Assembly: GCA_036380875.1 (NCBI GenBank)
Contig: DASVDX010000070.1
Location: forward strand, 20,233 to 84,232
Direction: 5' to 3'
From: Acidimicrobiia bacterium
GTDB taxonomy: Bacteria; Actinomycetota; Acidimicrobiia; Spongiisociales; ZC4RG35
DNA length: 64,000 nucleotides
Part shown: piece by piece, positions 56,920 through 64,000 of the stretch
How the letters are laid out: every line of letters begins with the position of its first letter
Numbering within the stretch: position 1 is the first letter of the stretch
The notes under the pieces: model-generated
What the model was told of the DNA's origin: nothing
The model's database searches: none
What the model saw: only the letters and a program-made list of their open reading frames with translations
Made by a program: the position numbers and the translations under genes

Positions 56920-57803
56920 ACTTCCTGTCCGTCGCCGACCTCACCGCCGAGGCCCTGGCGGACGTGCTCGGCCTGGCGGCCGACGTGAAGCAGGAGCCTG
57001 GCCGATACTCGACGGCCCTCGCCGGCCGCTCGATCGGGCTCTTCTTCGCCAAGCAGAGCCTGCGCACCTGGGTCTCGTGCGATGTGGCGGCGATCCAACT
57101 CGGCGCCCATCCGCTGTCGATCCGTGACGACACGGCCGGCCTCGGCACCCGCGAGACGCCTGCCGATGTGGCCCGGGTTCTCGACCGATACCTCGACCTC
57201 CTCGCCTTGCGGGTCCACCGCCACGAGGACCTGGTGGAGATCGCCCGGCACGCCGAGATGCCCATCGTCAACCTGCTCTCCGACCGGGAGCACCCGTGCC
57301 AGGCACTGGCCGACCTGCAGACGATCGCCGAGCACCGCGAGCTCAACGGGGCGACGATCACGTTCATCGGCGACGGCAACAACGTGTGCCATTCGCTGAT
57401 GCTCGGCGCCGCGATGGTCGGAGCCACTGTCCGAGTGGTTGGACCACCGGGATACGAGCCCGACGACGATGTACTCGAGGTGGCCAGGAAGTTCGGCGAC
57501 GTCACCGCACTCCACGACCCGCACGAGGCGGTGGCCGGGAGCGACGTCGTCTACACGGACGTGTGGGCGTCGATGGGCCAGGAGGCGGAGGCCGAGCTGC
57601 GCCGCCGCCACTTCGAGCCCTATCGGGTGACGCTCGAATTGTTCGAGGCCGCCGGGCCGGATGCGATCTTCATGCATTGCTTGCCGGCGCACAGGGGGGA
57701 GGAAGTCGTCGACGAGGTGATCGACCATCCCCGGTCGGTCGTGTTCGACCAGGCAGAGAACCGTCTCCATTCGTTCAAGGCGCTGCTCCTCCACCTGCTG
57801 TGA
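56916..57803 (+). CDS. argF: Ornithine carbamoyltransferase
   Basis: SLRT, HPCQ, DGNNV, DVWASMGQE, HCLPA. Confidence 0.9.
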   Translation: MNFLSVADLTAEALADVLGLAADVKQEPGRYSTALAGRSIGLFFAKQSLRTWVSCDVAAIQLGAHPLSIRDDTAGLGTRETPADVARVLDRYLDLLALRVHRHEDLVEIARHAEMPIVNLLSDREHPCQALADLQTIAEHRELNGATITFIGDGNNVCHSLMLGAAMVGATVRVVGPPGYEPDDDVLEVARKFGDVTALHDPHEAVAGSDVVYTDVWASMGQEAEAELRRRHFEPYRVTLELFEAAGPDAIFMHCLPAHRGEEVVDEVIDHPRSVVFDQAENRLHSFKALLLHLL

Positions 57804-58363
57804 AACAGATCGACCTGGCCGAGTTCCTCGCAGGGCGTTCCTGGGAGGTGGCGCCGCGGCTCATCGGCTGGCGGCTCGAGACCCGGTTCGAAGGCGTCAC
57901 CACCGCGGTGGTACTCACCGAGGTGGAGGCTTACGACCAGACCGATCCGGCCTCCCATTCCTACCGCGGGCCGACCAACCGGGCGGCGATCATGTTCGGC
58001 CCTCCCGGGAACCTCTACGTCTACCGCTCCTATGGGCTGCATTGGTGCGCGAACATCGTCACCGGGCCGGAAGGTCACGGAGCCGCCGTGCTCCTGCGGG
58101 CCGGAATCCCCGTCGAGGGAGTCGATGAGATGGTGCGGCGCCGGGGCCGGGCCACCAACCTCACAGACGGGCCCGGGAAACTGACCGAGGCTTTGGGAAT
58201 AACGGGCGACCACAACGGGTTGGACCTGATCCACGAGGATTCGGTCCGGCTCCTGCCGACGGGGGAGTCATTCACCGTCCTCGCCACGCCTAGAATCGGT
58301 ATCACCAAAGCGGTGGAAAAGCCGTGGAGGTTCGTGGCGGTGACCGACGGTAAGGGATTTTGA
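57800..58363 (+). CDS. mpg: 3-methyladenine DNA glycosylase (AAG/MPG family)
   Basis: TEVEAY, SHSYRG, YVYRSYGLHWC.N, AVLLRA, GPGKL, PRIGI, PWRF. Confidence 0.93.
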   Translation: MKQIDLAEFLAGRSWEVAPRLIGWRLETRFEGVTTAVVLTEVEAYDQTDPASHSYRGPTNRAAIMFGPPGNLYVYRSYGLHWCANIVTGPEGHGAAVLLRAGIPVEGVDEMVRRRGRATNLTDGPGKLTEALGITGDHNGLDLIHEDSVRLLPTGESFTVLATPRIGITKAVEKPWRFVAVTDGKGF

Positions 58364-58757: not shown

Positions 58758-60284
<1,527 letters not shown>

Positions 60285-60539: not shown

Positions 60540-61102
60540 AGCACGATGTCTTGGAATTCTCTATATCCAAGCTACTAAGGGCCAACGGTGGATGCCTTGG
60601 CGCTAGGAGACGATGAAGGACGTGGCAGGCTGCGATAAGCCCCGGGGAGCCGTCAAGCAGGCACCGATCCGGGGATGTCCGAATGGGGAAACCCGACTGG
60701 GGTCATGCCCAGTCACTCCGGTCTGAACACATAGGGCCGGTAGAGACAACCAGGGGAATTGAAACATCTCAGTACCCTGAGGAAAGGAAAGCAATAGCGA
60801 CTCCCTGAGTAGTGGCGAGCGAAACGGGATGAGCCTAAACCGATGCAGTGTCAAAGCCCGGTGGCGTTGCTGTATCGGGGTCGTGGGACCCACCCGCTGG
60901 TGCACCGGAGCCGGCAAGGAGTTACAAACTCGGCGGTTAGTCGAACACAGCTGGAAAGCTGGGCCACAGGAGGTAATAGCCCTGTAGACGAAAACTGACC
61001 GAGCTCCTGGTGGTGTTCCCAAGTAGCACGGAGGATATTCCGTGTGAATCTGCGAGGACCACCTCGTAAGGCTAAGTACTACCTAGCGACCGATAGCGGA
61101 CA

Positions 61103-61133
<31 letters not shown>

Positions 61134-61622
61134 GGCGAGGGGAGTGAAATAGTACCTGAAACCGTTGGCTTACAAGCAGTGGGAGGAGTTGCTTGCAACT
61201 CTGACCGCCTGCCTTTTGAAGAATGAGCCGACGAGTTAGCGATATGTGGCGAGGTTAAGGTGTAAAGCCGTAGCCGAAGCGAAAGCGAGTCTTAATAGGG
61301 CGTCTAGTCGCATGTCCTAGACCCGAAGCCGAGTGAGCTATCCATGGGCAGGGTGAAGCGAGGGTAAGACCTCGTGGAGGCCCGAACCCACCAAGGCGAA
61401 AACTTGGGGGATGACCTGTGGATAGGGGTGAAAGGCCAATCAAACTCGGCGATAGCTGGTTCTCCCCGAAATAGCTTTTGGGCTAGCGTCGTGTGTTCCG
61501 TGCTGGGGGTAGAGCACTGATTGGGCTAGGGGGCCAACAAGCTTACCGAACTCAGTCAAACTCCGAATCCCAGTACGCCAAGCACGGCAGTCAGTCTACG
61601 GGGGATGAGCTTCGTAGACGCG

Positions 61623-61655
<33 letters not shown>

Positions 61656-61728
61656 CAAATCTCAACTAAGTGGGAAACGATGTGGGATCGCCCAAACAGC
61701 CAGGATGTTGGCTTAGAAGCAGCCACCA

Positions 61729-61764
<36 letters not shown>

Positions 61765-62646
61765 CCTGCGCGGAAAATGTAACGGGGCTCAAGTTGAGTA
61801 CCGAAGCTGCGGGATTTCGTGACGATTCGTCGTCACGGGATCGGTAGGGGAGCGTCATGCCACCAGCGAAGCGGCGGCGTAAGCCAGCCGTGGAGGTGAC
61901 ATGAGTGAGAATGTCGGCATGAGTAGCGAAAGAGGAGTGAGAATCTCCTCCGCCGAATGTCCAAGGGTTCCTGGGGAAGGTTCGTCCGCCCAGGGTAAGT
62001 CGGGACCTAAGGCGAGGCCGCGAGGCGTAGTCGATGGACAACAGGTTGATATTCCTGTACCGCTCTATGCGCGTCCCGGCCGAATCTGGTGTGCTAAGGA
62101 AAGCCCTTCGGGGCCTACCGACCCCGCCAGTACTAGGCCAGCGATGGGGTGACACGGAAAGGTAAGCGGACCCGGGCGATGGTTGTTCCCGGGGTAAGCG
62201 TGCGGGGCGGCACCTAGGCAAATCCGGGTGCCACAAAGCCCGAGGCGCGATGCCGAGCCGCTTTAGGCGAAGCCGCTGACCCTATGCCGTCGAGAAAAAC
62301 CTCTAGCGAGCTCATAGGGCGCCCGTACCCCAAACCGACACAGGTGGACAGGTAGAGAATACCAAGGCGAGCGAGTTAACCCTGGTTAAGGAACTCGGCA
62401 AAATGGCTCCGTAACTTCGGGAGAAGGAGCGCCCCGGTAAGGTGAAGGACTTCGCGTCCCGAGCTTGAGGGGGCCGCAGAAACCAGGCCCAAGCGACTGT
62501 TTACCAAAAACACAGCAGCGTGCTAAGTCGCAAGACGACGTATACGCTGTGACGCCTGCCCGGTGCTGGAAGGTTAAGTGGATGGGTTAGCTTCGGCGAA
62601 GCCCTGAAACAAAGCCCCAGTAAACGGCGGCCGTAACTATAACGGT

Positions 62647-63398
62647 TACTACCCAAGTGGCCGTGGGTAAACCTGGCTGTATGCTGGGACATCCGAGTAT
62701 CCGACGGTACTCGTTCATGTCACAACCGTCTCGTACGGTGCTGACATGGGCAGTGAAAATCCGATCGGTGCGGACGATCAGCAGGAAACCGAACGCACTG
62801 TGGAGCTCGCTCCCTGGTGGGTTGTCGGGTTCGTCGATGGTGAAGGCTGCTTCTCAGTGAGCCTGCACCGGAACGAACTGGCAACACCCACAAGAGGCTG
62901 GCACATCCAGCCGACGTTCCAGGTCTCTCAGCATTGCGACAACCGCGGTGTCTTGTTGGAGCTCCGAGACTTCTTCGGGGCCGGCACCGTGAGGAGCAAG
63001 GGCCCGAGAACCCCTGTGCACGTCTATGTGGTTCACAGCACCAAGGAGCTGATGAGAACGGTGATCCCGTTCTTCGAGGGGCATCCACTACGCGTCAAGC
63101 GGGAGGACTTCGAGATCTTCGCCCGGATCACCCGAGCGATCAGATCGAGGAGTCATCACCGCCCAGAGGTGTTCGATGAGCTGGTGCGACTGGCCTACTC
63201 GATGAATGCGAGAGGCAAACAACGCAAACGGCCCATCGAAGAGATCCTCTCGGGATCCTCAGAGACTGTACGCCAGGCACCACTCTCATCTGAGTGGTGA
63301 AGATACAGTCCGATCCTCATGGCGACATGAGGAGCCAGACAGAAATGATCTGGCCACTCACATTCGAATATGAGCCGAATGTGAGGAGTAACAACATG
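62647..63398 (+). mobile_element. Group I intron (IB-like) inserted after 23S U1923 (E. coli numbering)
   Basis: Splits AACTATAACGGT|CCTAAGGTAGCG; U.G in P1 with IGS GCCGT; P4 TGCTG/CAGCA; P7 GACTGT/ACAGTC; terminal G. Confidence 0.95.
62746..63300 (+). CDS. Single-motif LAGLIDADG homing endonuclease in the intron
   Basis: WVVGFVDGEGCFSV motif, FQVSQ, PFFEGHPL..KREDF; alternative start GTG 62800. Confidence 0.92.
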   Translation: MGSENPIGADDQQETERTVELAPWWVVGFVDGEGCFSVSLHRNELATPTRGWHIQPTFQVSQHCDNRGVLLELRDFFGAGTVRSKGPRTPVHVYVVHSTKELMRTVIPFFEGHPLRVKREDFEIFARITRAIRSRSHHRPEVFDELVRLAYSMNARGKQRKRPIEEILSGSSETVRQAPLSSEW

Positions 63399-63453
<55 letters not shown>

Positions 63454-63963
63454 CGACTTGGGCACTGTCTCAACCAGGGACTCGGCGAAATTGCAGTGTG
63501 AGTAAAGATGCTCACTACCTGCGGCAGGACGGAAAGACCCCGGAACCTTGACTGTAGCTTGACATTGGAGTCTGACGGGTGATGTGTAGGATAGGTGGGA
63601 GACTGGGAAGCAGCGGCGCCAGCCGTTGTGGAGTCGCCCTTGAAATACCACCCTTCACTCGGCGGCCTTCTAACCTCGGTCCGTTATCCGGATCAGGGAC
63701 AGTGTCTGGTAGGCAGTTTCACTGGGGCGGTGGCCTCCTAAAAGGTAACGGAGGCGCCCAAAGGTTCCCTCAATCCGGTTGGCAATCGGATGTTGAGTGT
63801 AAAGGCACAAGGGAGCTTGACTGCGAGACCTACAAGTCGAGCAGGGACGAAAGTCGGGCTTAGTGATCCCATGGTGGCATGTGGGTGCGCCATGGCTCAA
63901 CGGCTAAAAGGTACTCCGGGGATAACAGGCTCATACCCCCCAAGAGTCCATATCGACGGGGGT

Positions 63964-64000
<37 letters not shown>

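Follow-up and report, generated by a model that had tools for sequence, protein, structure and literature searches.

Our analysis covered a 64,000-nucleotide stretch of contig DASVDX010000070.1, hereafter referred to as the window, and it indicates that the feature under study is probably an endonuclease gene carried by a mobile group I intron, which interrupts a 23S rRNA gene after position 1923. Both the intron and its enzyme are of a well-known kind; judged from alignments and a tree, the lineage of this enzyme is other than that of I-CeuI, which is classically associated with the position. Homing endonucleases that act on universally conserved rDNA serve as rare-cutters and as models of how proteins recognise DNA and of how selfish elements complete their life cycle, and I-CeuI is the standard tool used to cut bacterial chromosomes at their rrn operons. 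The main elements of the locus are the following:

60565..64000, plus strand: host 23S rRNA gene (Rfam LSU_rRNA_bacteria, 2309 bits; the 5' 2552 of 2925 model positions)
62642..62646, plus strand: 5' exon strand of P1 (ACGGU), with the 5' splice site after U 62646, equivalent to E. coli U1923
62647..63398, plus strand: group I intron of 752 nt, without P2, with an extended P5 domain and omega-G at 63398
62746..63300, plus strand: homing endonuclease ORF, 184 aa plus TGA, with an ATG start
62842-62844, 62929-62931 and 63097-63099, plus strand: key codons of the ORF, for E33, Q62 and K118, respectively
63399..63424, plus strand: start of the 3' exon (CCUAAGGUAGCGAAAUUCC...), E. coli C1924 onward

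The end of the window cuts off the host 23S gene, whose Rfam match runs to position 64000. In a relative that is 99.2% identical (L060), the 23S end lies 326 nt past the window and is followed by the 5S gene; judged from this relative, there is no second intron in the remaining part of the 23S. The insertion after U1923 has a junction that reads ...TAACTATAACGGT(62646)|TACTAC...AACATG(63398)|CCTAAGGTAGCGA..., so that the 752 nt split the exact 26-bp I-CeuI site, TAACTATAACGGT|CCTAAGGTAGCGA, and the exons once joined make a perfect site (26/26), the reference for this comparison being the 26-bp sequence contained in primer CeuF (PMC2790883). Exactly these 752 nt are skipped by the intron-less 23S contigs that were recovered from 16 metagenome and metatranscriptome runs in searches for the joint with 25-nt exon flanks. 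In a metagenome scan with the 16-mer GGGATCCTCAGAGACT, about half of the matches lay away from any rRNA; they probably arose by chance and were set aside.

The identification of the insertion as a group I ribozyme with P1 and P3 to P9.2 is strongly supported by the comparison of 29 related introns, in which we combined RNAalifold with pair counts. Its structural elements, all on the plus strand, are as follows:

62660..62664: internal guide sequence, the 3' strand of P1 (GCCGU), pairing with ACGGU at 62642..62646
62672..62677: 5' strand of P3 (CCUGGC), pairing with 63272-63277 (GCCAGG), with compensatory changes at 4 of 6 pairs
62683..62782: P4-P5 domain, from RNAalifold and pair counts
62683-62687/62778-62782: P4, invariant and hence uninformative for covariation
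62693-62695/62771-62773: P5
62701-62707/62761-62768: P5a
62708-62722/62742-62755: P5b
62725-62739: P5c hairpin
62783..62792: 5' strand of P6/P6a (AGGAAACCGA), pairing with UCGGGAUCCU at 63250-63259 and closing loop L6
62793..63249: loop L6, with the body of the endonuclease gene; missing from ORF-less L1923 introns
63264..63269: 5' strand of P7 (GACUGU), pairing with 63305-63310 (ACAGUC) and forming the pseudoknot with P3
63278..63299: P8 hairpin, CACCACUC-UCAUCU-GAGUGGUG, from the Rfam alignment
63315-63332, 63334-63354 and 63357-63385: P9, P9.1 and P9.2, with compensatory changes at 16 of 21 pairs

Across the 29 introns, 97.1% of cells were paired, against 28-41% in slid controls, and 36 compensated pairs were observed, against 8-17 in the controls; none of 500 shuffles reached the observed values. 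The covariation extends to individual helices: an exon G-to-C change in P1 is matched by a change of the guide sequence in 3 of the 29 introns, all of which keep the U-G wobble at the 5' splice site; the pairs of P6a alternate among GC, AU, UA and CG; P7 shows a compensatory change from G-C to A-U in four sequences; and the P8 hairpin is kept in all relatives with differing sequences. The Rfam model of group I introns (RF00028, Intron_gpI) does not report the intron at its gathering threshold, and a permissive search matched the 3' core at 28.5 bits (E=3.7e-5; gathering score 50), with the R and S elements aligned to the model; this sub-threshold score weighs little because the model cannot span the 457-nt ORF in L6. 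An intervening sequence processed by RNase III was also considered, and it was rejected because a group I core is present and covaries. By analogy only, the intron may be assigned to the IB4 subtype; the analogy is based on the occurrence of IB4 introns at LSU/1923 and LSU/1931 and on the absence of P2.

The body of the ORF fills L6. Helices of the ribozyme core encode both the N and the C tail of the protein: there is strong support that the first ~18 and the last ~14 codons are ribozyme core translated as protein. The start codon (62746-62748) is base-paired within P5b, and the single-sequence fold of P4-P5 (-41.7 kcal/mol, z=-3.2) also has the AUG paired, while the stop codon (63298-63300) overlaps the 3' end of the P8 hairpin. 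Nine ORF-less L1923 introns of 263-330 nt could be aligned with the window intron; in these relatives P6 is a short hairpin with a loop of 4-10 nt, and in one of them (L111) the residual reading frame consists of the N tail joined to the C tail.

The first-pass annotation had described an uninterrupted 184-aa ORF with the motif VVGFVDGEG and had read it as an intact LAGLIDADG endonuclease, and our results bear out both points. The motif occupies residues 26-34 (nt 62821-62847), no in-frame start lies between the preceding stop and the ATG, and Pfam LAGLIDADG_1 (PF00961) matches residues 27-126 as a single domain per chain, scoring 63.8 bits where the cut-off is 23.1 (E=3.1e-17). This match, together with more than 1400 homologues, rules out a chance ORF. 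No NCBIfam model matches the 184-aa protein, and the more than 100 clusters of the enzyme family, at 59-99% identity, are every one labelled hypothetical. As far as profile and homologue comparisons can establish, these data confirm the ORF as the intact gene of a single-motif LAGLIDADG_1 homing endonuclease, a class that acts as homodimers, and its product appears to be functional.

Structure prediction and conservation agree with this assignment. The AF2 model has a core with pLDDT >90, disordered tails and the topology alpha-beta-beta-alpha-beta-beta-alpha (H23-33, E34-42, E52-63, H64-77, E81-84, E91-96, H99-112). Its best Foldseek match is I-TnaI (35% identity, TM 0.86); the single-domain enzymes I-TnaI, I-Vdi141I and I-CreI match across the whole core, whereas two-domain enzymes match by halves only. 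In I-CreI, D20 is the acidic metal-binding residue and Q47 and K98 are the active-site Gln and Lys. An hhalign alignment (probability 97.4%) places E33, Q62 and K118 at these three positions, so E33 is the putative metal-binding acid of the window enzyme; I-CreI R51 is not kept, and N66 stands at its position. None of the three residues varies in 50 homologues of 59-99% identity, and every residue that is invariant in this comparison is present in the window protein. Over the core, dN/dS is 0.08-0.37 and pS 0.35-0.76, with an omega of 0.15 against the nearest relative (L001), values that support purifying selection on the endonuclease. In the protein tails pS is 0-0.23, which indicates that they are under constraint at the RNA level.

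Special attention was given to the relation of this enzyme to I-CeuI, since the first-pass annotation had predicted I-CeuI-like specificity. As regards position, the results agree with it: the intron is inserted exactly at 1923, inside the 26-bp site. As regards kinship, they do not. BLASTP aligns I-CeuI with the window enzyme at 29% identity over 104 aa; core identity is 20.6% to I-CeuI, 23.6% to I-CreI and 35-39% to the enzymes of L1931 introns, and I-CeuI scores 33.7 bits, where I-TnaI reaches 89 bits and the best PDB match 129 bits. I-CeuI is not among the best 50 Foldseek matches, where I-TnaI ranks first. In a neighbor-joining tree computed without I-TnaI, the window clade groups with the L1931/L1917 enzymes (70% bootstrap), and I-CeuI falls outside this group, paired (90% bootstrap) with the enzyme of a different L1923 intron (L125), to which it is 43% identical; the kinship with I-CeuI that had been implied is not supported. 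By these comparisons, the window enzyme is not an I-CeuI orthologue; its lineage is that of I-TnaI and the L1931/L1917 enzymes. This placement implies that it probably contacts other bases than I-CeuI does and cuts at other exact positions.

It could nevertheless be proposed that the enzyme has true I-CeuI-equivalent specificity, with the same ~19-26-bp recognition sequence and a CTAA 3' overhang, given that the insertion point is identical to that of the I-CeuI intron, that the joined exons match the I-CeuI site throughout, and that LAGLIDADG enzymes cleave a few bp from the insertion site of their own intron. We consider this rather unlikely, as the core identity to I-CeuI is low, the DNA-facing residues of the beta-strands differ, the enzyme clusters with the L1931/L1917 proteins, and the I-CeuI-type enzyme at L1923 is another protein, that of L125. 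A dyad scan of the joined exons, which is a weak analysis, does not favor the CTAA centre: the best centres stand at 4-5/9, TAAG at 5/9 and CTAA, the true centre of I-CeuI, at 3/9, where ~2.25 is expected by chance. The scan is thus uninformative as to the cleavage centre, and the target has no clear dyad symmetry by which the cut could be placed.

Among the closest known systems, the best structural match is I-TnaI of the Thermotoga 23S L1931 intron (PDB 5GKK), an intron reportedly described by Nesbo and Doolittle in 2003. Like the window protein, I-TnaI is encoded in a group I intron of a bacterial 23S gene and carries one LAGLIDADG_1 motif in a chain of ~160-180 aa; it differs in its site, 8 nt away (1931 versus 1923), in its thermophilic host of another phylum, and in sequence (~35% identity). 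I-CeuI itself, from the Chlamydomonas eugametos chloroplast intron Ce.LSU.5, shares the LSU position, the 26-bp sequence and the single LAGLIDADG motif, but it carries an N-terminal extension of ~50 aa that has no counterpart in the window enzyme, and this homodimeric protein is organellar and AT-rich, whereas the window gene has a GC3 of ~76% in a host of 67.6% GC. I-ShaI and I-KazI of CPR bacteria (Tsurumaki et al. 2024) are also metagenome-derived enzymes with a single LAGLIDADG_1 domain from 23S group I introns, and I-ShaI, a single-domain homodimer, has been shown by experiment to cut its joined-exon target, which makes it a precedent for the window enzyme (PMC11270868). I-ShaI is 42% identical to I-CeuI and is thus of the I-CeuI type, like the enzyme of L125 and unlike that of the window; the hosts of I-ShaI and I-KazI are Patescibacteria, whereas the window host is a high-GC soil bacterium. 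The L1917 and L1931 introns of Synechococcus C9 and S. lividus (Haugen et al. 2007) lack P2, their P5 is complex, and their ORF runs from a peripheral loop through P7, P3 and P8 (PMC1995217). The window intron shows this architecture too; its site and host are different. In archaea, metagenomic group I introns of one subtype (IB4) occupy both LSU/1923 and LSU/1931 (Nawrocki et al. 2018; PMC6125680), the former being the rRNA position found here in a bacterium; the sharing of one subtype by both positions fits the close similarity of L1923 and L1931 introns. L1923 does not appear in a table of the LSU introns of bacteria that contain HEGs (PMC1995217), and the LAGLIDADG_1 sites of the CPR survey are 1917, 1931, 1952, 2593, 2604 and 2657, without 1923 (PMC11270868). 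Our literature search for L1923 and I-TnaI by those names returned nothing relevant.

A further explanation is that the protein is kept mainly or only as a maturase for its intron, with little or no DNA endonuclease activity. Dedicated maturases commonly lose their catalytic residues, and here E33, Q62 and K118 remain unchanged throughout the 50 homologues; moreover, ORF-less introns persist with the whole ribozyme, so the RNA is not strictly dependent on the protein. In favor of this explanation, the closest solved relative is I-TnaI, maturase-like activity has been reported for the Thermotoga neapolitana intron protein (PMC3984707), inheritance looks mostly vertical, and purifying selection would be expected equally. 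On balance, we regard an exclusive or main maturase role as improbable. That the ORF is a decaying remnant, intact by chance and on its way to loss, is scarcely credible: other lineages do have degraded copies (L013, L057, L094) and the nine ORF-less ones at this site, but the ORF is full-length with each family-invariant residue and an omega of 0.15 against L001, its copy in L060 differs by 1 residue, and the intron in contigs from independent samples differs by 0-1 nt.

The reading that we favor, a homing endonuclease encoded in a mobile intron, can be set out as a cycle. The intron would leave the pre-23S rRNA through guanosine-initiated self-splicing, and the enzyme would be translated from the excised intron or from the precursor RNA after the opening of the helix in which the AUG is sequestered. 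Once dimerised through its LAGLIDADG helix, the protein would cut 23S DNA that lacks the intron, inside a site of ~20 bp across the 1923 junction and with 4-nt 3' overhangs, and repair off the intron-plus copy would then insert the intron, while intron-plus alleles would be immune owing to their split site. The prediction that the intron-less 1923 region is cut follows from the position of the intron and from the logic of homing. In favor of such a cycle, intact, degraded and ORF-less copies all lie at one site. A secondary maturase role is possible, as for the Thermotoga enzyme. The first-pass annotation had also expected spread between taxa, and for this we found a weak indication. The divergence of the introns mostly follows that of the host 23S, and exon and intron identities show mild incongruence only (L005 versus L009/L010/L100). 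Two relatives, L005 and L006, have 23S sequences that are 99% identical, yet they are labelled as different phyla. Because the incongruence is mild and the phylum labels of MAGs are unreliable, we make no claim of transfer across phyla.

Evidence at the RNA level comes from at least 8 metatranscriptomes in which the intron was found. In one of these (X36), a contig of 782 nt (752+30) with a depth of 135 represents a closed circle of 752 nt whose joint, 63398->62647, corresponds exactly to the predicted ends; this full-length circle suggests that each of the two splice sites reacts in nature. The circular joint was absent from assembler contigs of 15 other runs, so the circle was present in 1 of 16. 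Contigs that span the exon-intron borders occur in several RNA runs and represent unspliced precursor or contaminating DNA. It is important to consider that the abundant joint that skips the 752 nt derives from intron-less 23S genes of other community members and so is no evidence of splicing in this organism, and that the universal flanks prevent an assignment of ligated exons to it.

Taken as a whole, this is a selfish element of a well-known kind, and it leaves the general picture of such elements unchanged. It extends HEG-bearing 23S introns to bacterial position 1923 and to high-GC soil lineages, which are absent from the lists in PMC1995217 and PMC11270868, and it brings together, at a single site, intact, decayed and ORF-less introns as a natural series. 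The locus further illustrates dual coding in a clean form: ribozyme helices serve as protein ends and are made visible by suppressed synonymous change. We propose tentatively, as a possibility that falls short of even chances, that the enzyme represents a second, independent protein solution for the conserved 1923 DNA, derived from L1931/L1917-type enzymes through a shift of a few bp, that it reads different bases and/or cuts at another central four than I-CeuI, and that the intron may accumulate as an abundant full-length circle carrying the ORF. If this were true, the enzyme would be a natural counterpart of I-CeuI for the study of unrelated dimers on one asymmetric site, and a new rare-cutter would be available for almost every rrn operon of bacteria. 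The locus adds an abundant, uncharacterised family of enzymes, predicted to cut in or beside the I-CeuI site and of different ancestry.

The endonuclease reading frame was recovered exactly as the first-pass annotation had described it. It encodes 184 aa from an ATG, the preceding stop leaves no earlier in-frame start in the ORF listing, and the motif VVGFVDGEG occupies residues 26-34 (nt 62821-62847). Membership of the LAGLIDADG family is borne out by a Pfam LAGLIDADG_1 match over residues 27-126, which scores 63.8 bits where the cut-off is 23.1. The frame lies inside the 23S rRNA gene, and a tRNA search found no tRNA.

Features of the rRNA locus and of the reading frame
58758..60284: 16S rRNA gene (Rfam)
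60565..64000: LSU (23S) rRNA gene, truncated by the window end (Rfam)
62746..63300, + strand: LAGLIDADG ORF
First ~18 codons of the ORF: P5b-P5a-P5-P4'-P6 ribozyme sequence
Last ~14 codons of the ORF: P6'-J6/7-P7-P3'-P8 ribozyme sequence

The 5' exon ends in GGCCGTAACTATAACGGT (62646), the insertion begins with TACTACCC and ends with AACAACATG (63398), and the 3' exon resumes with CCTAAGGTAGCGAAATTCC, so that the insertion measures 752 nt; in every run examined, intron-less 23S contigs of other community members omit exactly the same 752 nt. In helix-69 numbering we take the last 5' exon base to be U1923, hence the name L1923 for this intron. The joined exons read TAACTATAACGGTCCTAAGGTAGCGA, which is the 26-bp I-CeuI site contained in primer CeuF, and cleavage of intron-free 23S DNA by I-CeuI yields a CTAA 3' overhang (PMC2790883). 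Actinobacteria were left out of the survey in that work, as reportedly uncut by I-CeuI; in contrast, the joined exons of this probable actinobacterium (62621-62646 and 63399-63424) form a perfect 26-bp site. In a related locus, L060, which is 99.2% identical to the window and reaches past its end, the 23S gene runs on for 326 nt beyond that end, free of any other intron, and a 5S gene comes next. We also observed a SAM riboswitch at L060:10160-10253, about 6.3 kb downstream of this 5S gene, and, directly upstream of the rrn operon in the window, an ORF (57296-58363) whose C-terminal half resembles by eye a 3-methyladenine DNA glycosylase.

Judged by its sequence, the 752-nt insertion is a group I intron. 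It shows the hallmarks of U as the last 5' exon base and G as the last intron base, and the Rfam group I model aligns its 3' core, comprising the R element UCAGAGACU, P3', P8, the S element AAGAUACAGUC and P9 (28.5 bits, E=3.7e-5), a score under the gathering score because the model is unable to bridge the ORF. Relatives were collected as 11 loci from a species-representative genome collection and others by scanning metagenomes for a core 16-mer, and 29 distinct L1923 introns were aligned with the ORF body taken out. On this alignment, RNAalifold independently predicts P1, P3, P4, an extended P5 (P5, P5a, P5b), P6/P6a, P9, P9.1 and P9.2; P7 was placed by hand, as it is pseudoknotted with P3. 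Paired cells amount to 97.1%, and sliding the partners by 1-3 columns lowers this to 28-41%. Compensatory changes affect 36 pairs against 8-17 in the slid controls, and covariation scores 0.314 as opposed to about 0.05; none of 500 shuffles reached the observed values. P1 pairs exon ACGGU with guide GCCGU, and three introns with exon ACCGU carry guide GCGGU. The window intron has no P2. One related intron (L008:249-970) ends in CACACATA directly before CCTAAGG, lacks the terminal G and has a shortened P9 region, making it a possible omega-G-less variant, such as one Coxiella intron reportedly is. The cyanobacterial L1917 and L1931 introns of Haugen et al. (PMC1995217) likewise lack P2 and have a complex P5, and their ORF begins in a peripheral loop and extends across P7, P3 and P8, matching the architecture found here.

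The endonuclease gene is an insert in loop L6 of this ribozyme, as two comparisons indicate. Nine L1923 introns of 263-330 nt without an ORF differ from the window intron in a single block, their P6a loop having 4-10 nt versus 457 nt (62793-63249) in the window, and the residual frame of one related locus, L111, reads MSSDNPTGADNQQETE/PSGSSETVRQA, the family's N tail fused straight to its C tail. Consistent with such an insert, AlphaFold leaves residues 1-18 and 171-184 disordered around a core with pLDDT >90, and synonymous differences are almost absent in the tails (pS 0-0.23) versus a core near saturation (pS 0.35-0.76); likewise, I-CreI comes from an intron with the same R element and also ends in a ...SETVR... 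peptide, which that element encodes. Synonymous change among relatives is scarce in the tail codons at 62749-62793 and 63241-63279 because these overlap ribozyme helices. When the P4-P5 domain is folded as a single sequence (-41.7 kcal/mol, z=-3.2), the AUG at 62746-62748 is paired in P5b, so ribozyme folding and translation initiation should compete.

Full-length intron circles are a known side reaction of group I introns, and the intron sequence occurs in at least eight metatranscriptome runs (manure, soil, compost, sludge). One of them, the compost RNA-Seq run X36, holds a 782-nt contig at depth 135 that maps to 62695..63398 and then on into 62647..62724. Its joint leads from 63398 back by 752 to 62647; the shorter side measures 78 nt, and the contig carries no exon. 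As 782 = 752 + 30, we infer a closed 752-nt cycle as printed by a k=31 assembler. The circle differs from the window intron by 6 nt, and its depth is about four times that of the exon-exon junction of the whole community in the same run. This joint suggests that both predicted splice sites react precisely in nature. Circle formation is alluded to by Haugen et al. (PMC1995217). Among the contigs of 15 other runs (two DNA, two guessed to be RNA and 11 others), the circle joint was not found, and several of these runs hold contigs spanning exon and intron, from precursor or DNA. We therefore regard intron excision as supported but not established.

The protein looks functional in sequence comparisons. 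Fifty homologues of 59-99% identity align without frameshifts, and a profile alignment to I-CreI (sequence checked against PDB 1N3E) equates E33, Q62 and K118 with D20, Q47 and K98, residues that have catalytic roles in I-CreI; the family shows no variation at any of the three. Over core residues 21-160, Nei-Gojobori omega lies at 0.08-0.37 in comparisons with 18 relatives (0.15 for L001, the nearest), and the AlphaFold fold is a canonical single-domain LAGLIDADG core. The core of the gene has a GC3 of about 76% and the host DNA 67.6% GC, so that the gene is adapted to hosts of high GC content. Degraded copies occupy the same site in L013 (647 nt, broken ORF), L057 (525 nt) and L094 (N terminus lost); together with the ORF-less copies, they form the series expected from the cycle in which homing endonuclease genes invade, decay and are lost.

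The first-pass annotation had read the gene as an intact endonuclease with predicted I-CeuI-like specificity, a reading that is partly supported: the intactness holds, and the implied kinship with I-CeuI does not. Using an I-CeuI sequence checked against PDB 2EX5 (207/207 aligned, one substitution), BLASTP gave 29% identity over 104 aa (53 bits). In the PDB search, I-CeuI scored 33.7 bits, the single-domain 5GKK protein 89 bits and I-OnuI-family halves 78-129 bits as whole chains (55-65 bits per domain in the alignments shown). Foldseek placed 5GKK first (I-TnaI of a Thermotoga 23S L1931 intron; 35% identity, TM 0.86), followed by I-Vdi141I, I-SmaMI, I-OnuI and I-CreI, and I-CeuI was absent from its top 50. 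A metagenomic L1923 intron, L125:4075-4744 (670 nt, AT-richer), encodes a different 180-aa enzyme with 43% identity to I-CeuI (115 bits) and 34% to the window protein; just downstream of this intron, an additional insertion is apparent. In a neighbour-joining tree of the 135-residue core (200 bootstraps, RNA-constrained tails left out), the 20 sequences of the window's L1923 clade group together at 87% and join the L1931/L1917 enzymes at 70%, and I-CeuI pairs with L125 outside this group at 90%. L1923 introns therefore carry two endonuclease lineages, the window's being the non-I-CeuI one, and the enzyme is not an I-CeuI orthologue.

The resemblance between L1923 and L1931 introns extends to their RNA, which fits the finding of Nawrocki et al. 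(PMC6125680) that in archaea a single subtype, IB4, occupies LSU/1923 as well as LSU/1931. In an Actinomycetota MAG (JBKHKD010000023.1, L003:2897-4400), we observed two HEG-bearing introns in one 23S gene: an L1923 intron of 747 nt and, 8 nt later after CCTAAGGT, an L1931 intron with its own 184-aa LAGLIDADG ORF, their 5' ribozyme sequences being very similar.

By homing logic, and in agreement with the first-pass annotation, the likely target of the enzyme is the intron-less 1923 junction, the intron-plus allele being immune because its site is split. The enzyme need not read the same bases as I-CeuI or cut at CTAA; its lineage is another one, and its DNA-facing strands differ from those of I-CeuI. 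A dyad-symmetry scan of the joined exons revealed no centre that stands out (true I-CeuI centre 3/9, best nearby 5/9, chance about 2.25).

The nearest genome record, the Acidimicrobiia MAG L001, is 87% identical in the endonuclease, 95.7% in the 23S exons and 87.6% in the intron. It also has about 335 extra nt absent from the window (L001:3665-3998, corresponding to window 63427). This stretch, some 28 nt beyond the 3' splice site and near L1951/1952, is probably a second intron, one that has no ORF. Other carrier MAGs are labelled Actinomycetota, Acidobacteriota or unclassified, with 23S exons mutually 84-97% identical. Two MAGs of one sample, labelled Acidobacteriota (L005) and Actinomycetes (L006), have exons 99.1% identical and an identical intron located at contig ends, so phylum labels of these rRNA contigs are unreliable; the operons appear mis-binned or collapsed. 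Intron divergence mostly parallels exon divergence, with a few mild exceptions, a pattern suggesting that inheritance has been mostly vertical, with transfer on occasion. Of the contigs with the exact 16-mer GGGATCCTCAGAGACT (L012-L131), about half lack rRNA nearby; these are probably chance matches, though some may be introns in other genes. The rRNA-linked ones hold related introns at L1931, L1951 and around L2593, frequently as arrays of several introns. Searching with the protein gave 1479 relatives, of which the best 120 clusters are 59-99% identical and, where named, "hypothetical protein"; NCBIfam has no model for the window protein.

HEG-bearing group I introns of bacterial 23S genes are well documented at L1917, L1931, L1951 and L2593 (PMC1995217) and, in CPR bacteria, at 1917, 1931, 1952, 2593, 2604 and 2657 (PMC11270868); the CPR enzyme I-ShaI, 42% identical to I-CeuI, was shown to be an active homodimer (PMC11270868). 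Group I introns are known at position 1923 in archaea (PMC6125680) and in chloroplasts (I-CeuI). In the literature accessible to our search, PMC1995217 and PMC11270868 included, we found neither a report of a bacterial 1923 intron nor an account of this enzyme lineage. The mechanism of the element is therefore ordinary, its combination of site, host and lineage is new, and it is a good subject for a simple biochemical test.
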